Shown here piece after piece: positions 16,868-64,000 of a DNA stretch of 64,000 nucleotides. Made by a program: the position numbers and the translations under genes. The stretch lies in assembly GCA_964187785.1 (NCBI GenBank), contig OZ076420.1, positions 51,088,001 to 51,152,000 of the forward strand, read 5' to 3'. Below the pieces are notes generated by a model, which was not told the origin of the DNA, searched no databases, and saw nothing but the letters and a program-made list of their open reading frames with translations. Position 1 is the first letter of the stretch, and each line of letters opens with the position of its first letter. This DNA comes from Amphiscolops sp. MND2022 (lineage: Eukaryota).

Positions 16868-16949
16868 GTTAGTGATCTGTTTTTTTTTCTTGGTCTTCGA
16901 AAACCTTAGTTGGTTGGGAGAACTTGAGATTTGGCAGTGATCTGACATA

Positions 16950-23248: not shown

Positions 23249-23262
23249 GAACCCCTAGCGTA

Positions 23263-26200: not shown

Positions 26201-26511
26201 GCAATGATAAAACAATGTTGATACAATGCACGAACGGACCTACCCGAGTGAGTTTAACCAGAGTTAAACCTTGCTACCTTCCATCAGAGACACATTTCAA
26301 ACCAACTGTGCCAAAATTGTCAGAGGACAATGGGTCCTTTTGTTCTTGTGGGGGACCTTTTAACACCGATATGATCGGCTGCGACGGTCCTAATTGTGTC
26401 ATACAATGGTTTCATTTTTCGTGTGTAGGAGTTGACAAACCTCCTCAAGGCAAGTGGTTTTGCCCTACTTGCAGGGAACAACGAGTACAGAAAACCGTTT
26501 CATTCGCATGA
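23263..26511 (+). CDS. pol: Pol (PR-RT-RH-IN) ending in a PHD finger
   Basis: [49 protein letters not shown], then [45 protein letters not shown] (26338-26478). Confidence 0.95.
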
Positions 26512-26840
26512 TTTTTGTCAACACTCCGTTATTTTATGGGGGACCTCTGTAACCTACCCTCACTGGATATCGGAAAAAATATTTCAATTCCAATTTTAGT
26601 CACCTATTCTTTATTTGTTTTGGACAACACATTATGTTAAACGTATAATTCAAGCCGTTATATTGATGGGCGACAATGCATTGAGACAACTTATCATGAT
26701 TACGTAATTACGTAGTAGTATGATGACTCATATGAGTCATTGCAGAAGTCACGTGACCACACTTCAAAACGACACAAAGGATCGTTTTCAACCCATAGAA
26801 TCACTTCTCTTCAAAAAACAGCACCAAACAGTCGGCAGAA

Positions 26841-27770: not shown

Positions 27771-28789
27771 GCAGTGCATCCGTCCAAAAGGAAAGGTACC
27801 GTCCAAAAGGAACGGCCAAAAGGAAAGGTACCGTCCAAAAGGAACGGCCAAAAGGAAAGGTTTGATAGTGCCGTTTAGAATGTAATCCTGCCCTTTGGGA
27901 CAATGATTTGGTATAAATAGAGTTGATTTCTTATCATTTATTCATTATTAATTTAACCTTCATTCGAATCAGTCGTCTTTTGTTATTCGACCCCACAGTA
28001 TTAAGCCAAGTGACTGGTAACCCTACTAAAGACGCAGAAGCTCTGAGGTTATGACTAACAGACTTTCTACTTTTATTTTATTTACACAGAACTGATAAAA
28101 CGTGCCTAAAACATATTTGTTAGATTAACCCGCATTTTAGGGGTTGTTCGGATTCTATATAATTTATTTTTCGTTTCGGAAAAATCAACTCAGTTATCTA
28201 CTTTTTGAAAACAGTGTCGACTCCGATTGTCAGTAAAAAACTACAAAGCGTTTGTAGACCCACAGTCTGTGGGCATGTCGAGGCATGTCCATCGTCGACG
28301 TATGCCCAATCAGGAACGTCGCACGCACTCAAGTTTTGGATTTTACATCGTGGAAGTTCGGCCCATTTGAAGAAGTGTTAAAAAACGGTAAACAACGCCA
28401 GCAATAATCGATAGTTTCCACTGACCGGGACAGTTAGCATGAAAACAGGTTTACCACAGTATCGGTTGTTTTTCTATTTTAGGATGTTTCTCTGGAGGCA
28501 CCGGGTCGACTGATTTTATATTTGTATCGGTTACCGGCCAACACAACAGGTATCGGTTACCGGATATGACACAACAATCGTCTTTAATAGATGAAATTTA
28601 AACAAACCGGGAACGGCATAAGTCGGCGCCTCGCTTGAGGCTCAAAAGTTCTGCAAAGTATTGTCTTCCACAGTAACCGAAAGCCCGAAAGGGACCGAAC
28701 TGGTGCGCCAAAATGGGGGCTTCAGGCTTTTTCAATATGCATTCTGTTGCAAAATATTTGAAAAAATTGAAAGGCGGCACTTTGGAGAC

Positions 28790-41600: not shown

Positions 41601-44600
41601 TGAATTTTTAGTTCCCTTCCCGACTTACGTCTTCGCACTTAGACCGGATATTGTGGCCTTAATGGCCAAACTCGCGTCGATGTGGGAACTTCCATCTATC
41701 TGTTTTTTGTCCCTTGGATTTTTCAAGTCACTTTTCAACAAATTCAACGCCGTTCAATGTCACCTGGATGTTACAACAAATAGAAACTGAAATCCACACT
41801 GCGGAGCTCGAAGTTGCCCTCCTACGTAATGAAACAGCAATGTTTCTCTCCCCTCCTCAACAGCAGCGGAATACTCGCCACCGACGTGGATCCCAAGTGG
41901 GACTAGCGGCTCTTGCTGCAGTCGGCCTTTTTGGAGGAGGAGTGGCTCTTGGTAGTTCTGACTCTTGTGGACTACAAGGCATTTTTGGTTCCTGTCAGGA
42001 CGATGCGAAGGCAAATGCCGAAAATATTCGCAAAGTATCAGACTTCCAGGACGTTTTAACCCAGTATGTAACCGAATTTACAACATCTACGGACAAAAAA
42101 TTTTTATGGTTGAAAATGAATTGGCGGCCCTTCACGACATCCAAAGGGAACTTGTTGATACGCAGAACAAAAACTGGGCACTTATTCAACAACAGTTTGA
42201 TGTTTTTGAGCATAATTTTCACGTACTTCGGGACTGCAACCAGTTACTATTTTCAAATCAGCAGTTGAACTTTAACTTCGACACTCTTTCGTCACTTCTA
42301 GCCATGATACATGCAAGTGTTAAGAGCTATCGCGCGGCCTTATTTGCATTCCGCATGAACATCTTGAATTCGATTCCCGTTATACTTAGAGGTCATTTGC
42401 CTATGTCCTTAGTACCAACGGAATCGTTATTGGCAATCCTTAGAAGTGTTGCGATACAACAGACGACGGCTGAGGATAGACTATCTCTCGCTATCCCAAT
42501 GTCAGATCTGCTGTCTTACTTTGACTCTAAGCTTTTAGCAGATGCTATAACTGTTACCGATGGTCTTTTGATGACCCTCAACATCCCGCTAGCATCTAAG
42601 CAAACCGTTTTCACTGTCTATGAAGCAAAATTAGTTCCGATGCCGTATCCAGACGATCCCCAGTCGGCTCTTACATGGAACATCGAAGCTCCATATTTAG
42701 CTTTGTCGGAGGATCACATGGAGTCATCTGTCCTCTCTGCAGAACAGTTTGAGCATTGTCTCGGCTCATCTCGTTACCGAATCTGTTCAGAATCTGTTCC
42801 AACAGAGATAGGACACTCGTCTTGTTTAGCCACCTTGTATTTCAGTACAGCATCGGAGGCTCTTGCAGTATGTGATACTACCATTGTACAACTGCCTACC
42901 ATAGAACAAGCAACAAACTTAGGCTATGGCATTTGGTTAATTCAATCCGCTCACGCAGTTACCCTTCGTGAAGTTTCATCTTCATCTGTTCAGGGCTCTT
43001 CTTTTCGCGGATGCCGCATATGTCTCATCACTTTAGCATGTGGAATGCAAATCATGACTGACAACATCAAAATCCGATCTGATCTATCAAGTTGCGCTCA
43101 CATTCCGCCAATAAAATTGCAAGTTTCTCTGCCTAATCCTATCGCTTCATTGGTTATGGAAGTCCCCCCTTTGGACGAATTACCGTTCTACACATCGAAA
43201 GCTGAAGCAGGAGTGAAGTTATTGAAGGAGGTAAAGCTACAGTTAGCAAAAGGACCAAAGAATCGTGAAGTCAAACATATGATCGACATTGCCAGACCAT
43301 ATGCATCAGAAATGAAACTCTTGAAACCAGCCTTAACGAAAGAATTTAATCAATATGTTCCGTTCCGAATTTCATTCATGCTGACATTAACTGTGTTCAT
43401 TGTATCGACAGCTTTGCACTTGATCTTTATGTACATTTATCATCGCTACAATCTGGCATCGAAATTGTTTCCATCCCTACTTGATAAAAATAAAAAAAGA
43501 GTGCGAGCTAAACCCATGATGAAATTGGAAACAACTGATTCTCATGCTGAGGATAAATTTCACAAAAAATTTGGACGAATATATCATCTTTCACGTTCAC
43601 AATCGAAAAGAAATCTAAACGAACCATCTACATCTGCTAATTGCGATCAAGTGCTCATGCAAAGTCCACTAGACCCCAGAATGGCCAGTTCAATGTTTGA
43701 ATACGAGACGACTGCATTCAAACAATGCCAACCCATTCAAAATCTTCAATCATCAATCAAAAAACATCCGAGTAACTGTCAAGTTACAATTAACCAAAAG
43801 GTTCCCGATACCGGAGACTTTGAAGCAGACCAAGCCGACACCATTGCTTGACTTCACGAACCTTCGGTTCAATCATTCATTCATCATTGAGATTGATCAA
43901 AACAAATCCTTTCATAAATTTTCGTCTGCAGTAATATGTAAACTATAAATGCAGTAATCTTTGGCTCTACAATATTCAACTGGACTGGATGAAATATACA
44001 ACTTTATCACAACATGAATCTGGGACTTGTGCTGCTCTCCAAAACACTTCTCTTTGGGCTCTTTCAATGGAATTATTGGAAGTAGACTACTCAACTTGGC
44101 AATTTCAGCTTCTAATCATCACTACACTACTCCTCAGACTGTATGATGGCTCTTTTTCAGACGCCGGAAGTTTTTCGATGAGAGGAAGTGTAACATAGCT
44201 GAAACATTCCGTTGTTGAGGACAAATGAACTGATTGAAAGAACTCTTAAATATTTGACCTTAAAACTATTTTACCTATGACAGAACGTTAACCTTTTAAC
44301 TATTTAATCAGCATCTATCTTTAAACAAATAACTATAATAATATCTATTAATACAAAAACATCAGTGCTGACAATAACTAGAGAATTGCATGGTTGTGTT
44401 TTCAAATAAGAAGATTGAGAACTAATCTGAGGATTGTGATCCATGTTCCGAAGACTTGGCTGCTCTCCATTCCTGCATCCAGCCGCCAGCCATAAATACT
44501 CATCTTAAAAGTAGAGATATAAGTATACTCAAACTTTATTTCATGCTTTGACGTTGATACAATATTCGTTTATATCAAATTGTTTTCTTGAACTCCTTCA

Positions 44601-47600: not shown

Positions 47601-50600
47601 ACGTCTGCCTGAGTTTTAAAAGTGTACGATTTCAGTCGTTTTTCTGGCAAAAATTGAATTCAGTTATTGAATTTTGAAATATACTTGAATAGAATCGCTG
47701 AACAACATTCTGAGCGGCCGCTAAATCGCTAATTAGTGGTGTCAAAACTCTGGTTCTACCTGATGACGACCTTGACAAGTAAGTGTTTGTTGTTTCTGTG
47801 CCGCCGCCTCGAAAATGGCATTACTTTTTTCGAAAAACTAAGTCATCGTCCCAGCGAATCACTTGATGTTTTCGTTTTTTTCCTTTTTCTCGTTGTACCA
47901 AAGTACTCCATATAAGGGCTCATTGCCTGTTGAAGAATCCCTCTGATGCAATGTATTCTATGATTTCTGCGATAGTAGGAATAATATTGAAATCTGAATT
48001 ATTCAACTTTTTCAGTTCAATTTTCGTCTGATTCCGAGTACCTACTAAAAAATTCAGATATTTTCGCCAGTGACTAAAAGCGTGAGATTCAAATTTCTCA
48101 AGCTGCCGACAATTCGTTTCTCGTGCGATGGAACGAGCGAGTGATAATTATGCTTTCGTACGCCGAGTTATTGAGATGAAGCTTACGAGTGTTAATTATT
48201 CGTTGGCCGAGAGCTTCGCCTGCATTTAAATGCGAATGTGAAACTTCGTCTACGCTTAGTAGTTATATTTTCTTTAGTCCTAGAATAGTTAAAGGCAGTG
48301 TAAACTTGTAGAGATTAATTTTGTGCTATATAAATGATTAAGATATGCTTCTATTATTGAACATGAAAGCCTAAAGCAGAAATATACTGTGCCCCGCAGG
48401 GGCCTATTTTGAAATTATGATCCTATTGTGTTCTTATGAACTTTGAAACGCTATAGAATTTAATTTTGAAATGAATATGAACTTTGAAATTCCTATAGAA
48501 ATAGGAGGTTAATATTGAATTGTACTTTGGCCATATACGTTCGCAATTGAATCAAATAATGTATATAGAAGTATGAAACGACTGGCAAAAGATCAAATAA
48601 CATTAGTCAACAAAAATAACAACAGGAAACATAAATAAGGCCTTTTTCCAAGGTTATTTTAACGAAATCCAAGAAATATCTCCAAAATATGAAAGGTTTT
48701 GATACGTCCGGGATTCGAACACAGATTCGAACGCCGTTTGTGTAATCCGATGCGATCGGAATATCCACTTAGTTATCGCGCCGCTGAAACAAATCAAATA
48801 AATCTTTTTTTTAGGAGTCAGAATAAATTTTTGACTACTTATGCAATTGTACGTTTTTTTTCTCCCGACCTTTCAACAAAAATTTCAAATATCTCAACAA
48901 CTGTCTATGCGATTTTCTATAAGATATGCTTCTATTATTGAACATGAAAGACTAAAAGCAGAAACAAAATTGTGCCCCGCAGGGTCCTATTTTATAAAAT
49001 TCATTTTGTTATAAGCTGCATTCTTATATGAATATATCTATTTCTGTTGTGTGGCAGGAGATTCTGGAGTTGTATGGGTCGAGCTACGAGGACATGGGCG
49101 AGCTGGTGGATGATCTGGTGGAGTCCAGTGTGGAGTTGCTGGCCGGGGACAGGGACAAGATCAAGAGTGTGTTGTTCAACACAGAGGAGATACTCTCTTA
49201 CGTGCCCCATCTGCCTTCCGGTACGCACACCCCCTCCTGTTCATAACCTAATTTTATCATATTTACTTGGATACTCGTTTCCACGTTAAATGAAGCATGT
49301 CAGATGAAATGAACGACCAATAGAAATTGATTAGCTTGCTACCGCAAATCTCAACTAATGTGAACGAAATGGTAGCTTGAATGAACGGAGACCGCATACT
49401 ATTTTGTGTACATGTAGCATTCTTTGGTCAGCGTTAGTTAAGTTTTAAAGCGTTGTTGGTGATTCTTATTTGCCAACTCACTTGGATGCGGATATTGTCC
49501 ACTTGACTTCTGATTTTCACTTGACTTCTGATTTTAAAGCTTCTGAAGCCGAGGCAATTTACTTAACATCTGATATGCTTCACTCAACGCGGAAACAGTG
49601 TAATATAATGAGGAAGCGGTAAATATAGATTATTACATTTGGTCTACACCCAGTTTATTTTATAAGCAATTAGGTGGCGCTAATAGAATACGTTGCTTAA
49701 CAATTGCTTAACAATTTACCAATTTGAGGCCTATACGTTGCTTAACTATTGCTTAGCATTAGTCATTAAACAGGGAATTGCTACGCTTTATGCGCATACA
49801 TAATTAATTGTGTTTCAGTTGCAATGTATTATTAAACATTATGAGCCAGAAATCATTGGGCGCTTTTGGATTTAAGAAATCTATTTTACATAGAGGAATT
49901 CGTGAAGATATCGCCCTTAGTGGTGATGCAAATGAAAATCCATTCCCATGCACGTTCCCAAATTGTCCACAGAGATTCAAATCTAAAAAAGGAAGAACAC
50001 AGCATGCAATTGCAAAACATGGTTCAACTTCAAGTGCAATTTTACAACCAAGCCAGGTGGATGAAGATGTTATTGAAGAAATTTCAGATGATGATATTCA
50101 AGAAATCAAGCCAAAATTGAAGAGAAAAAAGTATGATTGCATGTTTAAACTGGATGTTTTGGATTTTATTGAGTTAAATCCAAGTGAAACAGACAATGAT
50201 ATTGCGGCCTATTTTCACATAAATCCAACTCAAGTTTGCAGGTGGAAGAAGCAGAAACAATTAATTCAGGAAAATGCTGCCAATTTTCGAAGGATTCATA
50301 AATTTAGATAATAATGTAAATTTATAATGGGTCGGTAAAGTTTCACCAGAAGGACTCAAAGATTACAAGGTTCCAAAACCAGTTGAATTCATAGAACCCC
50401 CTAAAGATCCTGTTCTAGATGATCCACCACAGGCAGAGTCTAACGAGAGTGTTCAAAGTACAGAAATTTATGACGAAGAAGAGGTGGAAGAAAGAATTGA
50501 TGATGAAAATTCAAGATTATTTGACTATGAAAATGTTGGGAGAAAGATTAAAGCATTGTATGATTCTGGATGGCATATTGGAGAAATCAAGTATTACAAT

Positions 50601-51288
50601 GTGACATTGGCAGAATACAAAATTGATTTTGAAGATGGCAGTGTTGATTACATATCTTTAGATGAAATTGATGGCATTGAAATTTTACTCATTTAATTTT
50701 TAAATTTAGATTACAAATTGCTTAAAAATTGCTTAACAATTTACAAATTCCAGAGTTTTCAAATTGCTTAATTATTGCTTAAGTTTTAGTGTTTTCTAGC
50801 CTACGTTGCTTATAAGCGATTGCTTATAAAATAAACTGGGTGTATTGCCATCACAGAGGCTAAGAATGATTAGTCCTGAATTGATTGAACAAAAGTTTCA
50901 CTTGTCTTTGACCCAAAACGGAAAAATAATTTTGGAATTTTTATTATCGACGAAGAACATTTTTCTTCAGCATCACAACACAGAAAATTTCCTACTGTTA
51001 AAAACTGGTTTTCCTCAGAAAATTTGTACTTTTCTGGTTTTCAACCAAGGTTTTGCTGTGTGAAGCCAACCGGTTATCGTGTTCACCACCAAATGTGGCA
51101 AAGAGGCAGGCACAGCTGTTGTGAATTTAGGCAAATACTCGTTCGAGGGCAAGTACGGAGTGGCTGTCTCACTCAACATTCGCCGCTCCAAGAGGGAAGA
51201 GATGGAACTGCGCAAGAATCTCTGGGCTCGATTGGAAGCAGACGAGGAGTATGATGATGATGATGACGACAAAAAACGCCAAAAGTGA
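29638..51288 (+). CDS. Host gene: BRICHOS-domain type II membrane protein; exons 29638-29973, 44915-45193, 46547-46798, 49058-49220, 51050-51288; apparently disrupted
   Basis: Canonical GT..AG junctions with matching phases (1,1,0,1). Exon 1 has RKKRSG plus a TM helix (WCLAGTFGAGMLVALIIVALTVVLVQVFC). Exons 2-3 carry BRICHOS-like SIVVDFHKQLAAIKV..ECFV and VGSAIEQFCSDAPILAL; the last exon has RRSKR. A -1 indel near 29815, a +1 indel near 46635 and an in-frame TGA at 51061 break the frame. Confidence 0.7.
31681..32949 (+). CDS. gag: Gag with RG/NQ-rich region and CCHC knuckle
   Basis: QANFLQLHLRDAALRYFQTL; CYNCGYPNHLAKDC; ends at the slippery heptamer A AAA AAC (32940-32946) before TAA. Confidence 0.9.
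   Translation: MAALPQLSLTPYSGLEKENFREFEHLLRSILAVAAVPQAQQANFLQLHLRDAALRYFQTLPVATRADLDLSLTALRDHFCNPRLQELHVLKLENLKFDPKTDNPENFLVTLQTKALKAYPDPNPPAVAPIDGAAPDAAVEQTRFDSETARGAEIIHSAQQTRSAQIRRQFIKNMPGWLRAKLLEQPENTTVEDLCIFARKQLSIYNLCKVEDSVMDAFSEVRPSVSDTLVTALTKLSHSQETMDNRLNEMSKKLEEQATNFTTQLQNQQNQNNSQRGSQNYRGQGYRGNRGNYRGRYRGNNRGNRGRGYQGRGRPWQNNYGRNYNQSNQNYQNSNFNQNQNSQQQWSNHNQENFQQGNSNQGSSQTTFEVFTPDPHYMPYTQQSTHTCYNCGYPNHLAKDCTAQGNPPQRGAQMPFNQNQKN
32947..38443 (+). CDS. pol: Pol (PR-RT-RH-IN-Pro-rich linker-macrodomain), frameshifted near 33085, 34015 and 35770
   Basis: ALIDTGAC, RILIDLRRVN, CMDD in place of YMDD, CDAS, TDN, HHCC, DLVGP/SDLG/VERS, and a C-terminal macrodomain at 38027-38440. Confidence 0.9.
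39043..39700 (-). CDS. Antisense OTU-like cysteine protease domain, spliced (intron 39237-39338)
   Basis: RAILAQGGECWVSSVFLLLTG (Cys 39612-39610), LKRIRTSIGMHM, and EPW|ILGTAQFLGWDVLIY joined in frame by a GTAAGT..polyY-CAG intron, then FLLHII..KFHCEPL (His 39077-39075). One frameshift in a T-run near 39550. Confidence 0.6.
40656..41053 (-). CDS. Antisense small type I membrane glycoprotein (reconstructed across one frameshift)
   Basis: Signal peptide MKLLIIATVWLCYTVAQA; Cys-rich ectodomain with NGT, NES and NET sequons; TM VLKVIIFAFIIVASALCCWW; acidic tail. Confidence 0.6.
41440..43851 (+). CDS. env: Env, class I fusion glycoprotein (two frameshifts near 41700 and 42105)
   Basis: Signal MLVLFLLVFFTPASV; furin site RHRR (41876-41887) followed by the hydrophobic GSQVGLAALAAVGLFGGGVALG; heptad-rich region, Cys-rich ectodomain and TM ISFMLTLTVFIVSTALHLIFMYIY. 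Confidence 0.85.
45456..45609. mobile_element. Tc1/mariner (Tigger-like) MITE
   Basis: TA flanks; imperfect TIRs CAGTTGAATCCGCTTAATTCGTATC / GATACGAATTAACCGGAGTTTATGGTG. Confidence 0.6.
47450..47752. mobile_element. hAT MITE
   Basis: TIR CAGAGTTTTGACA / TGTCAAAACTCTG; 8-bp TSD GTTCTGCC / GTTCTACC. A related partial copy ends near 44878. Confidence 0.8.
48700..48785 (-). other. tRNA-derived SINE head or tRNA pseudogene
   Basis: Minus strand has an A-box-like TAACTAAGTGG and B-box GTTCGAATC(C), duplicated; no clean cloverleaf. Confidence 0.45.
49647..50842 (+). mobile_element. pogo-like (Tc1/mariner) internally deleted DNA transposon
   Basis: TIR CACCCAGTTTATTTTATAAGCAAT at both ends, TA TSD. 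The ORF from 49841 has a C2H2-like finger and a Brinker/CENP-B-type HTH (KRKKYDCMFKLDVL..IAAYFHINPTQVCRWKKQK). No DDD core; the C-terminal frame is Tudor-like. Confidence 0.8.
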
Positions 51289-51622
51289 GGACGCTTAGAG
51301 GGCTGCAAAACCAAAGACATTCAACTCATACCAAAATTGCCGAGTTTGCTATAATGTAGTTTCTCTCCTCATTTAGTGATAGTTAGAGCCCGGACGAGTT
51401 AACCGATAAACTGGATAATCAATTCTTGAGCGAGTAAAAATTTGAATCAATGAAAGCAAGAAGTCGTTGACAGTTGGACCCTAGCCCAATTGGCGAACGG
51501 ATGGATGCTCGCTACAATGGTCTGAAAATCAAACTGAAAAACGAATGAAGGCGTGTCGCGTTATGACTAACGCTTAATCAATAATACTAATGCAACTACA
51601 ACAATAAAGTGCTCAACAAAAA

Positions 51623-51886
51623 ACACCTGATTTAATAAAAAGCTCTACAAACATCCCAGGGATACTCTCCCGTTTCTAATCAAAAATTCCCCTGCAAAAA
51701 TACAAAGCTAATCAATTCCCTTTGTGCTACCGCGCAGTTTATGATTAAAAACACCTGATTTAATAAAAGGTTCAACTATCATCCCAGGGCTTCGGAGCCG
51801 TTTCTAATCAAAAATTCCCCTGCAAAAATACAAAGCTAATCAATTCCCTTTGAGCTACAGAGCAGTTTATGATTAAAAACACCTGC
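51623..51886. repeat. 128-bp tandem duplication in the putative U3
   Basis: ACACCTG recurs at 51623, 51751 and 51879 with near-identical intervening sequence. Confidence 0.85.
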
Positions 51887-52507
51887 ATAAACAAAGCACA
51901 AAATTGAACTAACCTGGAGACGGAGGGAGATGAAGATGAAAAATTAATAAAGTAGGGCGGCTGGCAAAAGAAAGGGAGGCCGCAGAATAATAAAGTAAAT
52001 TCTCGGGGGACGCAAATACCGCGGGATTGCACAAATGAAAAAATTCTATTATTCACCGCGGAGATCCGAAATCTAAAGCTAAGCTCTGATTGGCTGAACG
52101 AAAACCAGACCAATCAGGCTCTTCGGCAGAAGTGCTGAGCTGTTCTTATACGGCGCGCGCAGGCTGGAGCCTCATTCTTCCCTCCAACCGGCAGAGCTTC
52201 AACACCTAAAAAGCTCTCTCCCACTTTCTCTTCTCCTCAGCTTCTCTCCACTTTACTCAAAAACTCATTCCCCACTTTTCTTTTCCCTCGGTCTTATTTC
52301 TTCAAGACCAAAAAATTTCTATCTTTCATTCTCCTCTTCCCCTTCCTTTGGTCTTAAAATATTTCAATCTTGTGCTAAGTCCCACAGCACCAGCAGAATT
52401 TTCTATCTTAGAAAATTCTCCTCAACTCAATTTGGACTCCGTTTTGGTGAGTGAAAAATAACTTAGTTTCTTTTTGTGGAGATTTCTGATTCTCCCTTTT
52501 CTAACTA

Positions 52508-52836
52508 AATTTTATCTTAATAAAATTCCGCGGATTTCATTCAGCGATTGCTTAAATTTTATCTTAGTAAAATTTCACTGATTCTACTCAGTGGTTATCT
52601 GAATTTTATCTTAGTAAAATTTCACTGATTCTACTCAGTGGTTATTTAAATTTTATCTTAGTAAAATTCCACTGATTCTACTCAGTGGTTATTTGAATTT
52701 TATCCTAATAAAATTCCGCTGATTTCATTCAGCGATTGTTTAAATTTTATCTTAGCAAAATTTCACTGATTCTACTCAGTGGTTATTTGAATTTTATCTT
52801 AGTAAAATTCCGCTGATTTCATTCTGCGGTTATCTC
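52508..52836. repeat. 47-bp tandem array x7 of double-hairpin units
   Basis: Unit AATTTTATCTTAGTAAAATT(T/C)C(A/G)CTGATT..TCAG(T/C)G.TT.TT. Confidence 0.9.
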
Positions 52837-54647
52837 ATTTCTAATTACAAAAATACTAAATAAATGGTTGGCGTTACACTAGTATTTACAAAATCATTTC
52901 ACCGTGTTTACCTAGTTAGTTTGTTCCTTATAAAAAGTCCTAATACTGTCTCTCCACCCAACAGAGCAGTGACTTCAAAAAACTAAAAATTGCTGGTTTA
53001 AATTATCACCGGCTAAAATCATTTTTCATTTGCGGCAGATCTAAAGCATTTTCAATATGAAAGTGTAAAAGCTTGCATTTTAGTCTGTATATTTTAATAC
53101 TAATTTTCTGATGTACATAAATGCTCTCTGATATATTTTGTGAAGCTACTTTGCTCAAAATTGGAACAAATCTTTCAAATTAACTGAAGTGAAGTAAGTA
53201 GTTGTTTTGCTGCTGTATTTAACAAAAGATGGAATAGATACTGAGATGCCTAAAAAATTTTACTTAGTACTATTGTATGTTCACGTGATATAATTCAACA
53301 TATTTCCTTTCAATACTTTTCCCCTTTTCAGATAACTCATTTACATACACTGCCTTGCACTACTCACGCAACTCCCTTTGTTCGCACGTACACGCAAGGC
53401 ATTTCCTTTCTAGTATTACACGGAGTAAGCTTTGAGACTTTCTTACTCATTTACCATCAATAATAGAACAGCCACCTGAAAGTACTTTGCAAAATGCTAC
53501 ATAAGCTGAACTGACTAATACTGATAACAACTGAACAGTCACTTGAAAGGGAAAGTGATGCAAACAGGAAAAAGTAAATAGTAAAATTCATCCATGCGTG
53601 CAACAAACTGGTGCGACCAGTGAGGCACCCTTTCTCTCTCTTAGTAGAGAAGTAAATGAGTTATCTGTTAGAATCCCTACTCTCAGAAGTTAGGGTTAAC
53701 TACCTATTTCTCTTAACATTACTTATGATCCTCTTTTTTCTCCTATTGCCCCAGTATGTGGCTTCTTTGGTCTATATAAATCATAGAACTGCTAGAAAAT
53801 ACTCCAATAGAATCTCTCCAGCTTAATAGCCTTCAAAGAGACTGTGCACTACTCAACTTAGTCCTCTTAATCCCCAAAAACGGTTAGAGTTAATCTACTT
53901 CTTCGGAAATGCAAGACTACATTCGGTCCCAAAACAAGAATGAAAATGTTTTCTAACACGGAACTTAAACCTACAGTTGGGAAATTCACTCTTGTCCAGA
54001 CGGACACATATTAAGTAAAAGCCCGCCTAGGTCTCCTCGGAGGCTGATTGAAGGCCGTGAGCCCAGTGGGTGTCCCGGAACCTGTGTAGCATCCCAAGAG
54101 GGAAACCTAGTATTCTAGTGATAGTACCCAAGTGCTTGCATGATAGTGATCTTGGCCCCGCGCACTTAATCCTGAGGACGAGAGTGACTCCCTCTATTTG
54201 TTTATTGTATTACCTCTACAAAGGCCATTGTAAGGCTAGACTAGCGAACTGAGTACCTTTTGGGACCGACTGTACTCTCCACATATATATATATATATAT
54301 ATTTTGGGTTAAATCGGAGGAGTGGTATACCCCGAACTGCCCTTTCCTTTACTCATATAAATTTAGCGGGATTTGTAAGTATCCCCTAAAAATTTGGGAT
54401 TTGAGTATTAAACCCGGAGGACTAACGTAAGCTGAGAGGAGAGATCAAAAAATTTTTTTTTGCATACTATTGAGTATATGCAAAGCCAGACCTGCCTAGC
54501 GCTCATCATCTTTAGAACTCTTGCAAGAGCGTGTTTTACCTTAGTCATTTGCGGTCATTTACAGAGACCTGGAGTATCCTACCTAATCGAATCTTTAATT
54601 TATTATTCGTTGCTAAAATTTCTCTCTCTAATAATTTCAACAGCTCA

Positions 54648-56105
54648 ATGGCTGCGCAAAATTACTTGGCATATCCAGACCTCGGCCGAGACCAATTCAC
54701 AGGAACAGACCCAGATCAAGATCCTGAACAATTTATACAGCTCATTGAAAAGAAGTTCCGGTTTTCTCATGGTGATACCCCAGCCAACGGACCAGCACTT
54801 GACGACTACAACTTCAGAAGAAAATCCTATTTTGCTACACTATTAAGAGGACCCGCAGCAGAGTGGTTCGAGACCAGCATCACAGACGCTAACACTTGGG
54901 CAGAAATCAGAGAGAGGTTCATCACACGATTCGCAGATGGCAGAAACAAGTTTAGACACAGGATGGAAGCCGAACATGTCATCAGACGAGATGGAGAAGA
55001 AATAAAGAACTTCCTACACAGAATCAAAATAGTAGTGGGAAAAGGATGGCCAGATGACCTAGCCGGAGTTGCACAGAACAATAGAGACGCCGAAAGGGCA
55101 GCTCAAGACAGACAAAGAAGACAGAGATGCATTGACTACTCCCTAAGAGGCCTTAGACCTCCAAAGCTGAGGGAAAAGGCACACGAATATCTAATGGACC
55201 ACCCGAACGCAACCTGGGAGCAATTTTCACAAGCAGTAATAAATAAAGACCTTTCCTATACTGTAACTACCGCCCTAACTGGCGGAGAGTCACACGCAGA
55301 CCCACTCATACAAGAAATGCGAGACGATCTGAAGGGAATTAAACTACAAATAAAAGAACAAATGAATAACACGGTCAACGCGGTGGAGAAAACGGTAGAC
55401 CCTAATGCTACAGGAAGAAGAATGGCCACACGATTTTGCGGCTATTGCCGAACAAACGGGCATACACCTAACTGGTACAGAAAGAAAATGAGAGATGAGG
55501 AGGTCAAGAAGGTTCAAAACGAAGCTAACGCAGAGAGAAGAATAACATTCACCAACGATTACAATAAAAGAACTGGACCTGAGCACGGCTCAAGATTTCA
55601 GACAAGACTACCCGGTTCAGAGATCCGAAAAAATATGGCGGTTGCACATCAACTGGCACTTGCGGGAGCCATGCAAGCACCCCCCTCATGGAACCGATTT
55701 GATAGATCGCAGAACAGAAACTTTAACCCAGAACGCAGATCTACAAATACTAGATTTAGCTCCGGTAACCAGAGATTTTCGCAAGAGGTTAGAAGACCTT
55801 TTTCCAATAATTCTAACAGTTCCAGAAGCATTTCCCCAGGACCACAGAGAGTTAGATCTCCTTTTAACTTCAACAGAGACCAGCCTAACTCTTTTAATCG
55901 CAACATACAACCTCTCCCACCAAGGAATAACTCAGGTTTCCAGAGACAACAACAAAACAGAAACGAAAGATCCAATACTCCTACTCAGTTTTACGAGCAA
56001 AGATTCCCGAAAACTACCGACATGGGAAGATCTAACACAGTACAATTTTTAGAGACTGACTACTCAGTGAACTCAGTAGCCGATTTTCGTCCTTTAAACT
56101 ACTAA
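54648..56105 (+). CDS. gag: Gag
   Basis: FATLLRGPAAEWF, IKNFLHRIK, FCGYCRTNGHTPNWY (degenerate knuckle), R/N/Q-rich tail; ends T TTA AAC TAC TAA. Confidence 0.9.
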   Translation: MAAQNYLAYPDLGRDQFTGTDPDQDPEQFIQLIEKKFRFSHGDTPANGPALDDYNFRRKSYFATLLRGPAAEWFETSITDANTWAEIRERFITRFADGRNKFRHRMEAEHVIRRDGEEIKNFLHRIKIVVGKGWPDDLAGVAQNNRDAERAAQDRQRRQRCIDYSLRGLRPPKLREKAHEYLMDHPNATWEQFSQAVINKDLSYTVTTALTGGESHADPLIQEMRDDLKGIKLQIKEQMNNTVNAVEKTVDPNATGRRMATRFCGYCRTNGHTPNWYRKKMRDEEVKKVQNEANAERRITFTNDYNKRTGPEHGSRFQTRLPGSEIRKNMAVAHQLALAGAMQAPPSWNRFDRSQNRNFNPERRSTNTRFSSGNQRFSQEVRRPFSNNSNSSRSISPGPQRVRSPFNFNRDQPNSFNRNIQPLPPRNNSGFQRQQQNRNERSNTPTQFYEQRFPKTTDMGRSNTVQFLETDYSVNSVADFRPLNY

Positions 56106-59100
56106 GGTCTCCGAAAAATAAAAGTAGCAGCAGTGCCCCACTAAAATTTAGTCTTAATCTTTATTATTTTGCTGCCGGAGACTCACAAAAAGATAGTGGC
56201 TTGGAAATTGATTTTCTACTGGACACTGGGGCAACATCTTCAATCATCAACTATAGAACATTTAGAGAACTTTGTCAATTTCAACAAGATCTTGAACTCA
56301 GTAGGAGCAACAACACAACACGGAACTACTCTGGTCAAATCATCCCTATGATGGGATACATTTCGCTAAGACTCTACTATGACTCCGACGGCCAACATAA
56401 CTTCCCTCTGACAATCTGGATCACCGAAATGAAGACACAGAACCTTCTTGGAATGAACTTTTGCCAAGAACAAGTCAACAAAATACACTTCGATCTTCCC
56501 GGCATAGAACTCAAGAAACCGACTAATACCTTCTGTTACGGCAGTCTTCAACTCAACAAAAGTTACCCTTATGTATCGCAAATCTTCTCTGTCCGGATTC
56601 CTTACTCAATGTATATCGAGCCAAAAACGACAAGGTGTTACAAATTTGCACCGGAGAAGACTAAGAACTCTTTTCCTCCTGGATCTACGTTCCTACCCAA
56701 CAGAAAGGCAGTCTCTACAGGACTCAACTTCATAAATGTCCTTTGTACACGGTTTGAGAAGACTTTGCCAATCGTTATGGAAAACAACAAGAACCATACA
56801 ATCACGCTAGTAAAAGGAACAATAGGATACTCCATGCTAGACGTCATAGACAAAGAAATCCCAAAATATCAGATTAGAAATCCTACCGAACTCGCTTACA
56901 CCATTTTAAGCGAAAACGAAGAATACAATGATTGCTTCTTACTACACTCTACTATCCCTTCACAAGATATGAACGATTGCCTCAGAATAGAAGGAGGAAA
57001 TTCCACAACAATACTCAGCAGACCAGATTCTATCATCATCTTTGTCCCGGCTGATCTAAAGCCAGCCAAAGGCTTCTCTAAAGAAATTTTAACAAAAATA
57101 CCTTCACTAAAAGACTCTTGTGCAAAACAGAGGCCACAAAAAGGCGACACAGTACCATACTGGGATACAACTCTAAAGCGATTTATATACGTCCTAATAA
57201 CTAAAGCTAAATCGAAAGACAAAATCGACCCACAAATCTTAGCCCAATCGCTGGAAACACTAAAAGCCCACGCTAAAATGAATAACATCAAGACTGTTTC
57301 TATGTTACGAGAAGCATCAGAACTAGAGGACTTCCAATGGCAAGACGTTACACAAATTATTCAAGACATTTTTGCCTACTCAGAAATACAACTCCGAATT
57401 TATACAAGAAACGAGCTAGATGTCTACGCCATGACTACCAGAGGAGACCCCGAATATGGACTAGAAGATGAAATACAACAATATTCAGAAGAATTCCACT
57501 TGAAGCACAGAGAACTGGAAACTGACTTTACTAGAGACGCAAAGTCCTGTCAACCACCTTGTGAAGAACAATTCAAGATATTTAGGCCCAAAGAAGACAA
57601 CGATTGTCTCATTGAATACTACCTACAATATCAGAACAAGGAAGCAGTTCAATACATCAAGGAATTTGACTTTCGCTACTCAGACCTCACAGACGAAGAA
57701 CTTGTTCTTCTAATAGACCTACTAATGGATGCTAGAGATGTATACTCACAACACAAGTTCGACGTTGGAAAGACTAGACAGAAATTTAACATCAAGCTGG
57801 AACAGGGAGCAATTCTGAAGAGACAGAGACCTAGCAAAGTACCACTACACCTACGTGAGAAGTTAGAGAAACTACTAACACAACTCAAAGAGGCTGGCAT
57901 AATAAGAGAAATGGGAGATGACGACGAAATGGGATCCCTATTCGTAAACCCCATCATCCTACAACCAAAGCACGATTATGTTAAGCTGATCATAGACGCA
58001 AGATACCTGAGTTCAGTAACTGATCTAACAAACTACTCCCGGCCCTTGGAACCAATCCAAACCATAATGACGCTCATCAACGGGAAGATATTCTCAGTAA
58101 GCGATCTCTCTTGCGCTTTTCACCAAGTCCCACTAGATGAGCCCACACAGAAGTTAACTAGCTTCATAATTGGCGGTAAACAATACACATTCACCAGAGG
58201 ATTCTACGGACTTAAAGGATTACCCAGCTTCTTCAGCCGTATGATGACAATCCATTTTGAACCCCTCATCAAGAAGAAACAAGCAATAACCTACATAGAC
58301 GACACGTTAATGCAGGCCAAAAACAAACAAGAGATGTTCACAGTGATCCAAGAATACCATGACCTACTACGGAAAGCAGGACTCAAGGCAGCGCCCGACA
58401 AAACACTATTCTTCTTGCGAAAAGTTAAGTTCCTGGGACATGTGATTGCAGCAGACGGAATACAACCTGTAGCTAAGCGAGTCAGGGATCTTCACAATCT
58501 CAAATCGCCAAAAACAAAAACTGAGGTAAAGAGCTTCCTAGGGGCTCTGGGATTCTATAGCTGTTACATCAAGAATCTACATGTCGATAGCCGGCCTTTC
58601 TACGAGCTGACCAAGAAAGATACAAACTTTTGTTGGAAACAAGAACATGAAGACCTCTTCCAAGAAATAAAGAAGAGAATCAGCGAAGACACAGTTCTTG
58701 CAGTACCTTCAACAAAACACCCGTTTCATATACACGTAGACTCGTCCAATGTGGGGACAGGATGTATACTCATACAACAATTTCCAGAGGGGAAACGGAT
58801 CATCTCTTTCAATTCCAGAATTTTCGCAAAAGAAGAACAAAAGATGTCCACACTACATAGAGAACTATGTGGAATAGTCTCAGCACTACAAACATATGAG
58901 CACTATATCATTGGATCTCCCTTCTCGATCTATCTATATTGTGACCATAAACCAATTCTTTATCTCTGGGGACGAAAAGGACAGGTTTCACCACGATTCT
59001 TCAGGTACCAAGTGATTATTTCCAAGTTCCCAAATCTAAAGATAATATGGACGCCGGGAAGCAACTTGGCCTTCCCCGATATACTCAGCCGAAATGTCTC

Positions 59101-61600
59101 AATCAAAGAACATAAGAAACACCAACTTAGCCACAAGATCCTACCCAACGACATACACTTCTTCGACGAGCATGGGACCCAAGTTCATTACAAAATCAAA
59201 CACGAGGAAAACGACGAGACTTCAAAGAATGACTTCTACCCGATATTGTACGAAAAGGGGGATGAACGGAAAATCCTTCACCTACAAAATGACGGTAATA
59301 ACTTCACAGTTAACAATGTCTACGAGGAACCTAACCTGCCGAAGATAGAGTCGGCACAAAGTTGTTTTGACGCCGGAAAAGAAATTAGAAGTTACGAAGA
59401 GCTACGAATCAGATCTGGCACGCGAGAAAGCACTTCCGATATATCACAAAATACTTACAGCTCGGTTAACAGCGACGCCGGTGACGAAGCCCCTGCAGAT
59501 GATGAACGTCAAGAAGTGAACGAAACAAATTATGAGCCTAATACGAGTTCCCCGACACTCAAAGAACGTACCCCTGAAAATGATAAGGCAGTCGACAATT
59601 ACGAGCTCCTTAAAACCACAATAGGAAAACAAAAGACATCAACACGAGAACTCATAGGCCAACTCGATAAGATTTCCAAAGAAGCGGAGCTAAACGTCAC
59701 AACAATTTTACAAGAACAAATTAATGACCCAGTCCTCAGTGTGGTTCGACAATGGATGAAGACAGGAAACAAGCCTACGCCAAAGTCACCAGAGTTACAA
59801 CATTCGAAAGGCCTCATGCGCTACTTTCAGGAATTTGACCGACTAACTATAGAAGAACAGGGAAATCTCCTCTGCTACAACGAGCCAACTGACGACCCGG
59901 CCGACGAAAACCTGAGAATCTGCCTACCTCTCTCTCTATTTCTAACTTGCTTCCGTATGGGACATTACAACGACCTGGGCGGCCATATGGGGGCTGAGAA
60001 AACTTACCTAAACGCTAAAAGATTCTACTACTGGCCCGGAATGCACGACTGGATCTGTGCCCTCACACAAGATTGCGTTAGTTGCCAATCTAACAAATCC
60101 AAACAAAGAAGAAATAACGAAGTCCCCCTGGAAGACTGTGAAACAGAGACCCAAGTATTCAGAACAGTTCATATCGATCATAAAGGACCACTCAACCCTC
60201 CCAGTCGTGGAAATTCACACTGCCATCTCATCATTGACGCATTCTCGCGCTATTTGATGGCATACCCGGTCCGAGACACAGGGGCGCAATCAACAATCAA
60301 CGCTATGGAAAAATGGATAATGCACTACGGGATACCACAATCTATAATACATGATAGAGGAACAGCTTTTGTAAACACTGAGTTCGTCAACTGGACAAAA
60401 GAGTTTGGCATTACTCTTCGACCAAGAACTGCACACTCACCCTGGACAAATGGCAAAGTCGAGACGCAAAACCAACACATCGCAAGATACTGGAGAAACT
60501 TCCTAAATGAATCAGGAAATAACTGGGCCCAACTAGCCGCTAATTTTGCATTCGCCCACAACACAAGCGTCAACTACACAACAGGAAAGACACCCTACGA
60601 GATAGTGTTCTGCAACAAACCACAAATACCTATGAGTCTGAAGCTGGGACTTTATAGGAATAAAAACAAGAACTGTAAATCACAATTCTGTCACGGACTA
60701 CCTCCACACCGCCATAGTGAAAACCACGTAAAAAACGAACTATTAAATGGACTATTACGACCACAACTATCCCAAAACTTGCTGGAAAGAGAAACAGCCT
60801 TCAAAAAGATCTACTCATCCACATACGAAAAGTGCAGACAACAAACAGCTCGATCACACGCCTACAGAAACAGATTTAAACTCGGAAACCACCTCAACAT
60901 AGGACAAAAGGTCCTGCTAGAAAACCATCGAAAAGATCTTTCTAAAAGCCAAAAACTTCAGCAACTACGGTTAGGACCCTTTACAGTCACCAAGAGAATC
61001 ACCAACACAACTTACCAAATAACCGAAGATCGAAATCCAGAGAACCTCCGAACTGTACATAGAAATCACCTAATAGAATATATTCCCAAAGAGGAAACAC
61101 TCCCCCCTCTAATCGAAGAATACACAACTCCCCACCGTGGAGACACGGATTTTTATAACAATCTCGTCAAGGAAAGAATTGAACAACTTAATGTTTCAGA
61201 ACCACAAACACTGGAAGATCTCTGCATATTGCCAGTTCGGACCCAACAAGATCAAATACTTGCCCGCAAAAGAGAACAAACCCCACAGAGCACAGACTCT
61301 GGTATCATCTCTCCGGAAACCCAGTTGTTGGCAACCCCACAGACTCCCGATCAGCCTTCGATCTCACATCCTCGCGACACCGCAACCCCTATCCTAACGT
61401 TGACTCAACGTCAACTAACTCCAGCACGACCAACTAACAACCAGGCGTCTTCAAATAAATCACCGACCCCTTTGCAAGAATTACGAAGAGCTGTAGCCCG
61501 CCACATAGAAAGAAATCCACGATATCAACGAGCACAGCCCAATCAACCAGCACAACAGTCCGTCCTTCGCGAAAGGACTCGAATTGGTTACAAAGAATAA
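56093..61600 (+). CDS. pol: Pol via -1 frameshift (PR-macrodomain-RT-RH-IN)
   Basis: The -1 frame is open from the heptamer into the 1799-aa ORF. LLDTGA, macro-like 57002-57403, YIDD, VDSS, CDH, HHCC, DHKGP/HDRG/KVET, GPF. Confidence 0.95.
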   Translation, partial: FKLLRSPKNKSSSSAPLKFSLNLYYFAAGDSQKDSGLEIDFLLDTGATSSIINYRTFRELCQFQQDLELSRSNNTTRNYSGQIIPMMGYISLRLYYDSDGQHNFPLTIWITEMKTQNLLGMNFCQEQVNKIHFDLPGIELKKPTNTFCYGSLQLNKSYPYVSQIFSVRIPYSMYIEPKTTRCYKFAPEKTKNSFPPGSTFLPNRKAVSTGLNFINVLCTRFEKTLPIVMENNKNHTITLVKGTIGYSMLDVIDKEIPKYQIRNPTELAYTILSENEEYNDCFLLHSTIPSQDMNDCLRIEGGNSTTILSRPDSIIIFVPADLKPAKGFSKEILTKIPSLKDSCAKQRPQKGDTVPYWDTTLKRFIYVLITKAKSKDKIDPQILAQSLETLKAHAKMNNIKTVSMLREASELEDFQWQDVTQIIQDIFAYSEIQLRIYTRNELDVYAMTTRGDPEYGLEDEIQQYSEEFHLKHRELETDFTRDAKSCQPPCEEQFKIFRPKEDNDCLIEYYLQYQNKEAVQYIKEFDFRYSDLTDEELVLLIDLLMDARDVYSQHKFDVGKTRQKFNIKLEQGAILKRQRPSKVPLHLREKLEKLLTQLKEAGIIREMGDDDEMGSLFVNPIILQPKHDYVKLIIDARYLSSVTDLTNYSRPLEPIQTIMTLINGKIFSVSDLSCAFHQVPLDEPTQKLTSFIIGGKQYTFTRGFYGLKGLPSFFSRMMTIHFEPLIKKKQAITYIDDTLMQAKNKQEMFTVIQEYHDLLRKAGLKAAPDKTLFFLRKVKFLGHVIAADGIQPVAKRVRDLHNLKSPKTKTEVKSFLGALGFYSCYIKNLHVDSRPFYELTKKDTNFCWKQEHEDLFQEIKKRISEDTVLAVPSTKHPFHIHVDSSNVGTGCILIQQFPEGKRIISFNSRIFAKEEQKMSTLHRELCGIVSALQTYEHYIIGSPFSIYLYCDHKPILYLWGRKGQVSPRFFRYQVIISKFPNLKIIWTPGSNLAFPDILSRNVSIKEHKKHQLSHKILPNDIHFFDEHGTQVHYKIKHEENDETSKNDFYPILYEKGDERKILHLQNDGNNFTVNNVYEEPNLPKIESAQSCFDAGKEIRSYEELRIRSGTRESTSDISQNTYSSVNSDAGDEAPADDERQEVNETNYEPNTSSPTLKERTPENDKAVDNYELLKTTIGKQKTSTRELIGQLDKISKEAELNVTTILQEQINDPVLSVVRQWMKTGNKPTPKSPELQHSKGLMRYFQEFDRLTIEEQGNLLCYNEPTDDPADENLRICLPLSLFLTCFRMGHYNDLGGHMGAEKTYLNAKRFYYWPGMHDWICALTQDCVSCQSNKSKQRRNNEVPLEDCETETQVFRTVHIDHKGPLNPPSRGNSHCHLIIDAFSRYLMAYPVRDTGAQSTINAMEKWIMHYGIPQSIIHDRGTAFVNTEFVNWTKEFGITLRPRTAHSPWTNGKVETQNQHIARYWRNFLNESGNNWAQLAANFAFAHNTSVNYTTGKTPYEIVFCNKPQIPMSLKLGLYRNKNKNCKSQFCHGLPPHRHSENHVKNELLNGLLRPQLSQNLLERETAFKKIYSSTYEKCRQQTARSHAYRNRFKLGNHLNIGQKVLLENHRKDLSKSQKLQQLRLGPFTVTKRITNTTYQITEDRNPENLRTVHRNHLIEYIPKEETLPPLIEEYTTPHRGDTDFYNNLVKERIEQLNVSEPQTLEDLCILPVRTQQDQILARKREQTPQSTDSGIISPETQLLATPQTPDQPSISHPRDTATPILTLTQRQLTPARPTNNQASSNKSPTPLQELRRAVARHIERNPRYQRAQPNQPAQQSVLRERTRIGYKE

Positions 61601-61607
61601 CCTTATC

Positions 61608-61994
61608 ATGCCATGCCATAAAGTATATCTACAATTGCCCTGGCAAGTTCCACGAGAACTTCAGTCCTTAGGTGTTCTCAATGTAACAATTACAAAAATC
61701 TACTGGACCTACACCAACAAGCTAGTTAGAATCTGCTTCTACTCCAAAGACCCAGACCCGAGCCATAATAAACAAACAACGCCCCGAAAATCAAACATAC
61801 CTATACGCCCAGAATCTAAGACCTTTGCTCTTCTATATCAACACCTCGCATACTATGCAGTCACACACCACGACCCTATCCTAGAAGAACTCCTATCCTA
61901 CATGCCTACCCTAATACCTGACCTACAACCTTCCCTACCTAATACTAAAATGGACCTATTCTGCTGCTCTACTATCTCCTCACCTAGCTCCTAG
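61608..61994 (+). CDS. Accessory ORF 1 (paralog family), unknown function
   Basis: Starts 7 nt after the pol stop; shares the IPIRPESKTFALLYQHLAYY..LEELLSYMP motif with the ORFs at 63066 and 63454. Confidence 0.6.
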   Translation: MPCHKVYLQLPWQVPRELQSLGVLNVTITKIYWTYTNKLVRICFYSKDPDPSHNKQTTPRKSNIPIRPESKTFALLYQHLAYYAVTHHDPILEELLSYMPTLIPDLQPSLPNTKMDLFCCSTISSPSS

Positions 61995-62847
61995 CCTGCC
62001 ACGAATAGTAAAAAGGTTTTCTTATCATTTTTACTATTGTTTGCTTTGGTTTACCGATACTGTTATATTATTTGTGCAATCCCGAAAGAGCCATACAAAA
62101 GGCCACAAAAGACTGAAGCATATAGAAAAATAGGGAAGTTTAAGAGTGGAGAGACTTCAGAGCCTACTCCAGCTCTAAATAGCCCCCCATCTCCGCCAGT
62201 TTCTTCAATTGCTGGACCCGCTCAGAATTTGTCCATGCGGGCCATAACCGACGAAACTGACCCCGCTGAAACGAGGTTAATCGGGAATAGCCCAAGATAT
62301 GACTCCTGAGCTGGAACAGGAGCACTTACGTTTCTCTGTCCGGGTTACTAATGAGCCCTGGTATTAATCTAACCAGCGGACGACTAACACGGGGCGCGGG
62401 GAAGAACCAACAGGAACCGAATTGTCCGGGCGACTAGGCCCGGCCACAGACATTGCTGAGGAAGCAACAACAGCAGCAGACGAAGAAGAGACGACGACAG
62501 TAGACGTAGTCGGGGCCGTAACGCCCGACGACCCACTAGGGGCAAGATTATTGGTATTATTGCTGCTCATTACTAAATGCAAAGTAGCTATTGATAGTCA
62601 TGTAAACCTAAATGAATAAATATATTGATTTAATACTATTACGTCTTTATTTGTTTACCCTAGTATTCATAAATTCAATATATTATCTGCTCTTTATTCC
62701 TCGGTAATTAAACACGAAATCATCTGAAGTCGTGTTAATAATTTTTACCGTAAGACTGTTCTCAAACGCAATGAAAATAACTGATGATTACATTCTCAGA
62801 TTTGCTATGTTTGATGAACACAAACCACGAGGCAAAACACCCCACAG

Positions 62848-63066
62848 ATGATCATAATATTCAAAATCGACAATAGACTTTCACAGATCACGGACATTCA
62901 GAAGGAGCCCTCAACACAGAACATCATCATACAAGCCTACGCAATAGCAGAAGAAAGTGAAACCTACACTTGTGTGCCAGCATCACCCATCTACCCACTA
63001 CTGGAGAGCTTGCTATATAACAACACCCCTACTGAAGTCTTCACCAGAGCCAAATCAGTCATTTAA
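62848..63066 (+). CDS. Accessory ORF 2 (shorter, weaker paralog)
   Basis: QITDIQKE..IIIQAY..VPASPIYPLLESLLY; TAATG stop-start overlap with the next ORF. Confidence 0.45.
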   Translation: MIIIFKIDNRLSQITDIQKEPSTQNIIIQAYAIAEESETYTCVPASPIYPLLESLLYNNTPTEVFTRAKSVI

Positions 63067-63461
63067 TGTCCTCTCCCGCAGTAGCTGTCTTCCGCGGAAA
63101 TAATTACTACTTCCACACCCAATTTCAACCTCCTGTTCCTTGGACGCCCATACAACTCAAGGGCCAATACGAAATACAGTCAATTTTCCACGAGATCACT
63201 ACTTCTGCGATTCAAGTCCGTATTCTCACGCCAGAGGACAAAGAAGCTCTAGTCCTCTTCCCTATTCACTTCGGGTCCAAGGAATACGCCTACTTATTTC
63301 TTTCGTTCAAGCAATACATACTCCAACACCCCACCGTCCTCAAAGACAAGGCCTTCGACGACTTGGTTTATTTTATGGACATCACTCTCACCTCCAACCC
63401 CTTTGAAGAAGAAGTCCGAACCAAATACCTTCATAGCCTAGTCGACACCTACGATGTTTAA
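63066..63461 (+). CDS. Accessory ORF 3 (paralog family)
   Basis: EIQSIFHE..IQVRIL..FPIHFGSKEYAYLFLSFKQY..FDDLVYFMD. Confidence 0.65.
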   Translation: MSSPAVAVFRGNNYYFHTQFQPPVPWTPIQLKGQYEIQSIFHEITTSAIQVRILTPEDKEALVLFPIHFGSKEYAYLFLSFKQYILQHPTVLKDKAFDDLVYFMDITLTSNPFEEEVRTKYLHSLVDTYDV

Positions 63462-63795
63462 GATTCAACTCAAATTTCTCTGGCGGCATCCAGAAACAAA
63501 CACCCTCCTAGAAATCCTCTCTATCGCTTGGAAAGACAGCGCTCCAGTGATCCAAATAGAAATCCATAGTCTTCGACCGCACCAGCCAGGCCACTGGCTC
63601 ATCCCGGTAGAAACCGACTCACAAGAAGCTGCCGCTCTCGCACAATCCCTCAAGGAATACAGACAGATAGCATACTTAAATCACATTCACCCTCTTACAC
63701 TCTTCCTCCTCAACAAACTCATCGACTTCATCGACTCGAGAAGAAAAAACAAACCCTCTCCCAGTCTGCAATTCATCAGTGACAATTACAGCTAA
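63454..63795 (+). CDS. Accessory ORF 4 (paralog family)
   Basis: EILSIAWK..IQIEIHS..IPVETDSQEAAALAQSLKEY..LNKLIDFID; overlaps ORF 3 by 8 nt. Confidence 0.65.
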   Translation: MFKIQLKFLWRHPETNTLLEILSIAWKDSAPVIQIEIHSLRPHQPGHWLIPVETDSQEAAALAQSLKEYRQIAYLNHIHPLTLFLLNKLIDFIDSRRKNKPSPSLQFISDNYS

Positions 63796-64000
63796 ATCTT
63801 CACAAATGGTTGAAGTTAGTCTCTTTCAAATACTCTTCATAGGCACTCTTTTTCTAACAGTAGTGAGGTTACTACTATAAAATTTTAGCCTCCGCTTAGC
63901 GCAGTGCCCGCTAAGCTGCCGGTTTGATATTACGGCTTGCCTTTTTACGGTCTTACTCCTGGATCCATTACCTTAACTACAACTAAAAGAATAACAGACT

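Follow-up and report, generated by a model that had tools for sequence, protein, structure and literature searches.

Small conserved genes, three of them probably related by ancient duplication, lie between pol and env of a large Gypsy element in Amphiscolops sp.

Four small open reading frames, A, B, C and D, located immediately downstream of pol in the analysed 64,000-nucleotide stretch of Amphiscolops sp. DNA (hereafter the window), are, judged by sequence conservation, real genes of an env-carrying Gypsy element of about 18 kb, in which they occupy the region between pol and env. It is likely that three of the four arose by ancient duplication: profile comparisons give good support to C and D as paralogues, and the C–A profile match, together with the matching predicted order of strands and helices, makes A a likely third member. 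The internally amplified gene family proposed in the initial annotation is therefore retained for C, D and probably A, while the kinship of B with the other three is unproven by the same profile comparisons.

The element is organised in the order LTR, gag, pol, A, antisense E, B-C-D, a repeat of about 100 nt, env, a gene encoding a MATH domain, and LTR. The 5′ LTR (TG...CA) lies at positions 51554–53605 of the forward strand of the window, and its 3′ partner, 96.7% identical, at about 71808–73906 in window numbering, past the window end; a 4-bp target-site duplication, GGCG, flanks the two LTRs. Tandem repeats of 128 bp (51619–51895) and 47 bp (52461–52890) are present inside the 5′ LTR. The gag gene (54648–56105, +; 485 aa, PF03732) and the pol frame (56060–61600, +) are located on the same strand, and the latter encodes protease, macrodomain, RT, RNase H and integrase, the protease-RT-RNase H-integrase order being of the Gypsy type according to Pfam. 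The macrodomain (approximately 57030–57410, +) is TARG1/OARD1-like (phmmer against PDB, E 3.8e-11). Reading past position 64,000, where the initial annotation had suggested looking for env, did reveal this gene: it matches the class III fusion family PF24664 in two pieces (E 1.6e-8 and 5.2e-15) in the window copy, where it is split over two frames, and it forms one ORF of 715–716 aa in the families F2–F4. This domain content identifies the element as a gB-type Gypsy with env. In its last gene, a MATH domain was recognised at E 5.5e-12, and PAM2 was matched weakly, below the cut-off, at E 0.014. In the copy at L032:712-1761, this gene 3′ of env combines the PAM2-like motif, a likely coiled coil and the MATH domain, and the motif is kept as LNPxAxPFxP in four families.

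The window copy is rearranged, with positions 60361–64057 repeated in tandem just past the window end (99.5–99.8% identical), which may be a real duplication or an effect of assembly; the first tandem unit is without 184 nt of E. Two sibling copies are 17.8 kb long and carry LTR pairs that are 99.5% and 99.6% identical, so these copies are recent and the small genes are open to study under ongoing selection.

All four ORFs were recovered where the initial annotation had placed them, on the forward strand: A at 61608–61994 (128 aa), B, which constitutes a gene family of its own, at 62848–63066 (72 aa), C at 63066–63461 (131 aa) and D at 63454–63795 (113 aa). The start of A does lie 7 nt past the pol stop at 61600. 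The stop-start chain that had been drawn through the whole array holds for its distal part, where B and C share TAATG and C and D overlap by 8 nt (ATGTTTAA). A stands outside this chain, being kept apart from B by 853 nt (61995–62847) that hold the antisense ORF at 62364–62570. In-frame read-through from pol into A was rejected because the pol–A spacing varies across the families (7, 8, 7 and 11 nt).

Conservation in sibling elements was found as well. Four element families, F1–F4, were compared. Among 13 sibling stretches, those of F2–F4 had readable ORFs, the remainder being degraded or partial, and F2–F4 all retain A, E, B, C, D, env and the MATH gene in this sequence, with an additional gene, X, before B in F4. 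Both junctions, TAATG at B/C and the C/D overlap, are present in all four families. Of the 30 best genome matches to C, which over-represent intact copies, 26 retain TAATG and 29 the C/D overlap, and B, C and D are each intact in 28. The 1.07-Gb assembly yielded 102 matches to C, 158 to D (many of them partial) and at least 150 to A (150 of 150 scored, out of 519 candidates); these are numbers of matches and not of copies.

Pairwise dN/dS, from pairs with unsaturated dS, was 0.06–0.16 for A, 0.01–0.15 for B, 0.03–0.13 for C and 0.07–0.30 for D, against 0.22–0.54 for E, 0.04 for env and 0.08–0.10 for the integrase tail, and these ratios indicate that A–D are under purifying selection. Identity of C among the four families ranges from 48 to 98%, and identity to F4, the most distant family, is 58% for A, 72% for B, 48% for C and 53% for D. 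The earlier description of the genes as fast-diverging is thus apt relative to RT-RNase H, which is 83% identical to that of F4, but not in the sense of relaxed sequence, since dN/dS of 0.01–0.30 denotes constraint.

The paralogy rests mainly on profile comparisons. With shallow profiles, hhalign P values were 0.0022 for C–D, 0.014 for A–C and 0.085 for A–D, with a single register in all three pairs, and the scores were reached by 3–19 of 1000 column shuffles (the shuffle controls used profile Smith-Waterman). An HMM scan for C returned 15 proteins, 13 of which were remote C homologues; the three that were tested have a best identity of only 28–37% in the Amphiscolops genome. Addition of five remote sequences to the C profile gave P 1.4e-5 (probability 80%) for C–D and P 2.4e-4 (probability 44%) for C–A. 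The C–D value comes from an alignment cleaned of rows extending into a D homologue; an earlier C–D match, in which two alignment rows continued into it, was discarded. In a scan of 2078 distinct ORFs from the retrieved loci with the deepened C HMM, copies of D and then of A took each of the first 22 non-self places (best E 3e-6 and 2e-3, respectively), and the D and A profiles in turn placed C first, weakly (E 0.05 and 0.11). In the deepened comparison, the C–D score was equalled by 3 of 1000 shuffles and the C–A scores by 2 and 42 of 1000, while the A–D similarity taken alone was not significant (93 of 1000). The aligned pattern pointed out in the initial annotation is therefore above chance for C–D and C–A and not for A–D alone or for B against shuffles; the outcome that would have counted against it, scores no better than those of shuffled controls, did not occur for A, C and D.

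These same data bear on the view that the genes are real but unrelated and that their pattern reflects convergent amphipathic strand-helix periodicity. Identities among A, C and D are only 20–30%, B fails against the shuffles, and reversing the D profile hardly changes its score against C (28.5 reversed versus 27.9 forward with the shallow profile and 20.2 versus 21.6 with the deepened one), as such convergence would have it. However, the signal grows when independent homologues are added, D and A occupy the highest ranks in the ORF scan, the D HMM puts C first, and one register is common to all three pairs, which makes convergence quite improbable, and common descent of C, D and likely A is preferred.

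For B, the profile scores against C, A and D were no better than those of shuffles (353, 65 and 473 of 1000, respectively). The match of B to the C profile had P 0.015 over 27 columns, while shuffles were not beaten; C ORFs fill the 15 best non-self places of the B HMM (E 0.008–0.07), and B resembles the A/C/D pattern by eye. A relative of this region was detected in the metagenome contig L078 (1059 nt), the one confirmed among 381 candidates, which carries three tandem B-like ORFs joined stop-to-start, one of them cut by the contig end, and then a C homologue. The second B-like ORF matches the B profile at P 5.6e-5 and is 39% identical to the third. This tandem arrangement shows that amplification took place again elsewhere; L078 is short and without pol or env, so that the element around these genes is presumed. 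Two database proteins of the C family of L078, both frameshifted, continue into D-like sequence.

Structure prediction covered A and C singly, and the models were compared by the order of their elements. The AlphaFold pLDDT was 84.8 for C and 74.2 for A; the C model has strands at residues 13–26, 35–43, 49–54 and 63–67 and helices at 72–87 and 95–108, and the A model has strands at 3–13, 25–34, 39–46 and 60–66 and helices at 71–87 and 90–98. The two models, although predicted separately, have a common strand-helix order in register with the profile alignment. Pfam gave no match for A, B, C and D and none at useful scores for E and X; the protein database returned, among proteins of near lengths only, 40, 18 and 14 unnamed ENA matches for A, C and D, respectively; ESM Atlas contained no match at 0.9 or above, nothing significant was found in PDB by sequence, and the viral contigs searched contained no relative of C or RT. 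Fold searches with the A and C models, viral structural folds included, gave no significant match, only noise-level ones to PH-like, SH3-like and PUR/PC4/Whirly chains; those of A to PH-like chains (Z 4.4–4.6, rmsd 3.8–5.0, about 80 aligned) are likewise insignificant. No transmembrane segment was found in A–D (maximum 19-residue hydropathy 0.55–1.05), and the proteins are predicted to be soluble. FAST-like small membrane fusogens carry a transmembrane segment, and a reading of A–D as such fusogens was rejected on these hydropathy values.

Next to D lies a conserved repeat of about 100 nt with three predicted hairpins (63859–63958, +), of which sibling elements carry 2–3 copies in the interval from D to env. 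Two-sided changes occur at 7 of its 18 pairs, a value reached by none of 500 shuffles, though the 14 copies compared are related, which inflates this count; the structure was chosen from single-copy folds, and RNAalifold picked a different first helix. Rfam had no match for the repeat in four loci. Such an RNA could be a target if A–D were PC4/PUR/Whirly-like single-strand binders acting on the element's own RNA, with Rev/RRE-like control of export or translation, and the two-sided changes beside D would suit this reading. The PUR/Whirly unit consists of four strands plus a helix, which the predicted four strands and helix of A and C resemble; weak matches of A to MRP1/2, a T5 PC4 homologue and Borrelia Pur-alpha (Z 3.9, rmsd 5.7, 64 aligned) recur, and C weakly matches plant Whirly. 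At the same time, these matches are insignificant (E 0.38 or more, TM 0.14–0.24), PH-like and SH3-like chains equal or outscore them (Z 4.0–5.0), B and C are acidic (pI 4.6 and 5.4), and A homologues survive in repeats without the element. We consider single-strand binding doubtful, though it is the strongest of the competing functions.

The antisense ORF E (62364–62570, −) encodes 68 aa in the window after the 184-nt deletion and 196–235 aa in other copies. E, also read at L033:1846-2490 (−), has a low-complexity acidic or Ser-rich start and a conserved C-terminal domain of about 110 aa. An AT-rich spacer (62571–62847) separates the divergent starts of E and B and has a putative role in expression: it contains the acceptor-like TTCTCAG, with its AG at 62798–62799, and the start of a short upstream ORF at 62807. 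TTCTCAG/ATTTGC followed by an ATG 40–60 nt before B is kept in all four families, the motif being present in 29 of 30 copies, and by eye the upstream ATG opens an ORF of 5–14 codons ending on or before the B start. The TTCTCAG region would suit either a splice acceptor or an internal promoter like that of Tor elements. Coupled translation by reinitiation agrees with the conserved junctions at B/C and C/D. UGGGA, the motif of calicivirus-type (TURBS) reinitiation, was missing within 100 nt upstream of all nine junctions, which do not qualify as this type. Internal ATGs are few and start contexts weak, which would also suit leaky scanning. The lack of UGGGA at nine of nine junctions and of an internal ATG in B in three of the four families leaves leaky scanning as an alternative.

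The coupling of B, C and D directly before env would also suit structural or assembly factors of the particle produced in a fixed ratio, for example env chaperones or a layer of matrix type. In F1–F3, the conservation of B and C is close to that of env, and a long hairpin, modelled with confidence in C, might serve as an oligomer arm. Against this, B, C and D have no membrane segment, viral structural folds are unmatched, the second env-carrying element of the window is without B, C and D, and A occurs free of the element; a particle function is accordingly unlikely, with only convergence less probable.

Homologues of A (about 50%) were found at seven loci without pol or env of the Gypsy element. 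Six loci, read over 20 kb each, belong to two large repeat families that are 99% identical within a family over 13–17 kb, and gag, pol, B, C, D, E, X, env and the MATH gene were absent in all six. Two of the six contain a second A homologue, head to head. One such pair lies at L065:5393-5695 (−) and L066:1-381 (+), within a repeat that spans 16.7 kb or more, and DUF3504/QRICH1-like ORFs come next at L066:7194-8253. The stand-alone A homologues are constrained (dN/dS 0.26–0.39). Since A homologues are kept in repeats without gag, pol and env, the benefit of A seems to be independent of the retroviral cycle.

The explanation to which we give the most weight, at about even chances as a whole, is that A–D are conserved genes, that C, D and likely A come from one domain, that B, C and D are co-translated, and that the proteins are adaptors directed at host defence or silencing. 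C, D and likely A would descend from a single small domain of four strands and two helices. A B-C-D mRNA, subgenomic, would start at the AT-rich spacer or be spliced to the conserved acceptor-like site, and ribosomes that have read the short upstream ORF would go on to B, C and D by stop-start reinitiation, with falling amounts of product, while A would be produced separately, after the pol stop. The soluble products may act as adaptors that blunt host defence or silencing, which is the least supported step. Host-modulating adaptors are favoured because the element already carries macro and MATH modules, along with the weak PAM2 match, and because A persists without retroviral genes. Against the host-antagonist view, no fold or family match points to a function, and A–D show no sign of gene-wide positive selection; antagonists engaged in an arms race often show such selection.

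Env-carrying Gypsy elements with extra genes are known already, as the available parts of the reports on Burro (PMC6431247) and on rotifer elements (PMC5408684) make clear. The gB-type "ancient errantiviruses", as far as the available text of PMC13524379 describes them, share Gypsy pol, gag-pol-env order, a PF24664 env and many near-identical copies with the present element, which differs from them in having about 2.8–3.0 kb that hold five additional genes in the pol–env interval, with a MATH gene beyond env. In its available part, that survey, the largest one, states a prefilter that accepted POL-ENV gaps no longer than 1000 nt and regions no longer than 10 kb; given the 2.8–3.0 kb found here, such elements were likely missed by it, and the words "accessory" and "TRAF" have no occurrences in the main text as available. 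Planarian Burro/GYPSM1 is likewise giant and has env, MATH/TRAF and accessory ORFs proposed to meddle with the host; in the available account (PMC6431247), BIR, BCL2, ankyrin and SUMO-like domains were captured into one polyprotein and env lies between gag and pol, whereas the extras here are orphan paralogues, each a small gene of its own, with stop-start junctions. Oikopleura Tor3b/4b set an earlier example of an internal promoter located between pol and env; env expression, and no accessory gene cassette, is described in the available text (PMC4402516). Extra ORF3 types of bdelloid rotifer LTR elements are, like A, common to unrelated mobile elements, but are single recognisable enzymes or env according to the available part of PMC5408684, whereas the extras here are several in number, orphan and paralogous. 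Complex retroviruses and foamy-like fish ERVs, whose small genes near env enlarge the genome (touched on in the available part of PMC6431247), offer an analogy of operation. They are Retroviridae and not Gypsy, and a sequence or fold link to A–D was not found. A coupled pol-env cassette of orphan paralogues was not encountered in the literature searched, outside which lie most subscription papers and the repeat databases.

The usual picture of Gypsy elements is gag-pol(-env), and the gene count and expression signals of the present one resemble those of a complex virus. It is possible, though clearly short of even chances, that it represents an overlooked "complex" Gypsy virus lineage, with a self-amplified orphan family of a fold without solved relatives that re-expanded in the element of another host, an antisense gene, macro/MATH effectors and a repeated structured RNA, the proteins forming a counter-defence or Rev-like module and one member having become cargo of a non-retroviral repeat. 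In any case, the element supplies four unassigned protein families and a conserved structured RNA, as well as a case of one accessory gene, A, common to a retroelement and a different high-copy repeat, and it illustrates that pol-env distance filters can conceal such elements from surveys.

Several other elements and ORFs were noticed. ORF X encodes 176–182 aa (L053:4214-4762, L054:4213-4761, L055:4215-4763 and L038:1931-2461), and a MATH-like identity considered for it was not borne out. X is the sole long ORF of short derivatives with a period of about 4.8 kb that also keep the D end and are likely non-autonomous elements. The second env-carrying Gypsy of the window (30644–44524) has 336-bp LTRs that are 99.7% identical and a macrodomain at the pol end (Pfam E 0.007). 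Its pol is separated from a frameshifted env-like gene of different build by about 2.8 kb with small ORFs, some of them antisense; none of the 51 frames of this element is a relative of A–D. In a further Gypsy at 22133–27997 (266-bp LTRs, 98.5%), the pol end is PHD-finger-like, and a third ORF of 323 aa (26799–27770) is unassigned. A non-LTR retrotransposon in pieces (zinc-knuckle ORF, endonuclease, RT) lies at 16094–21315, preceded by a 257-aa frame without a Pfam match. Finally, a 1.2-kb element at 49645–50844 carries a zinc-finger/Brinker-like ORF as well as perfect terminal inverted repeats of 26 bp and is likely a non-autonomous DNA transposon.
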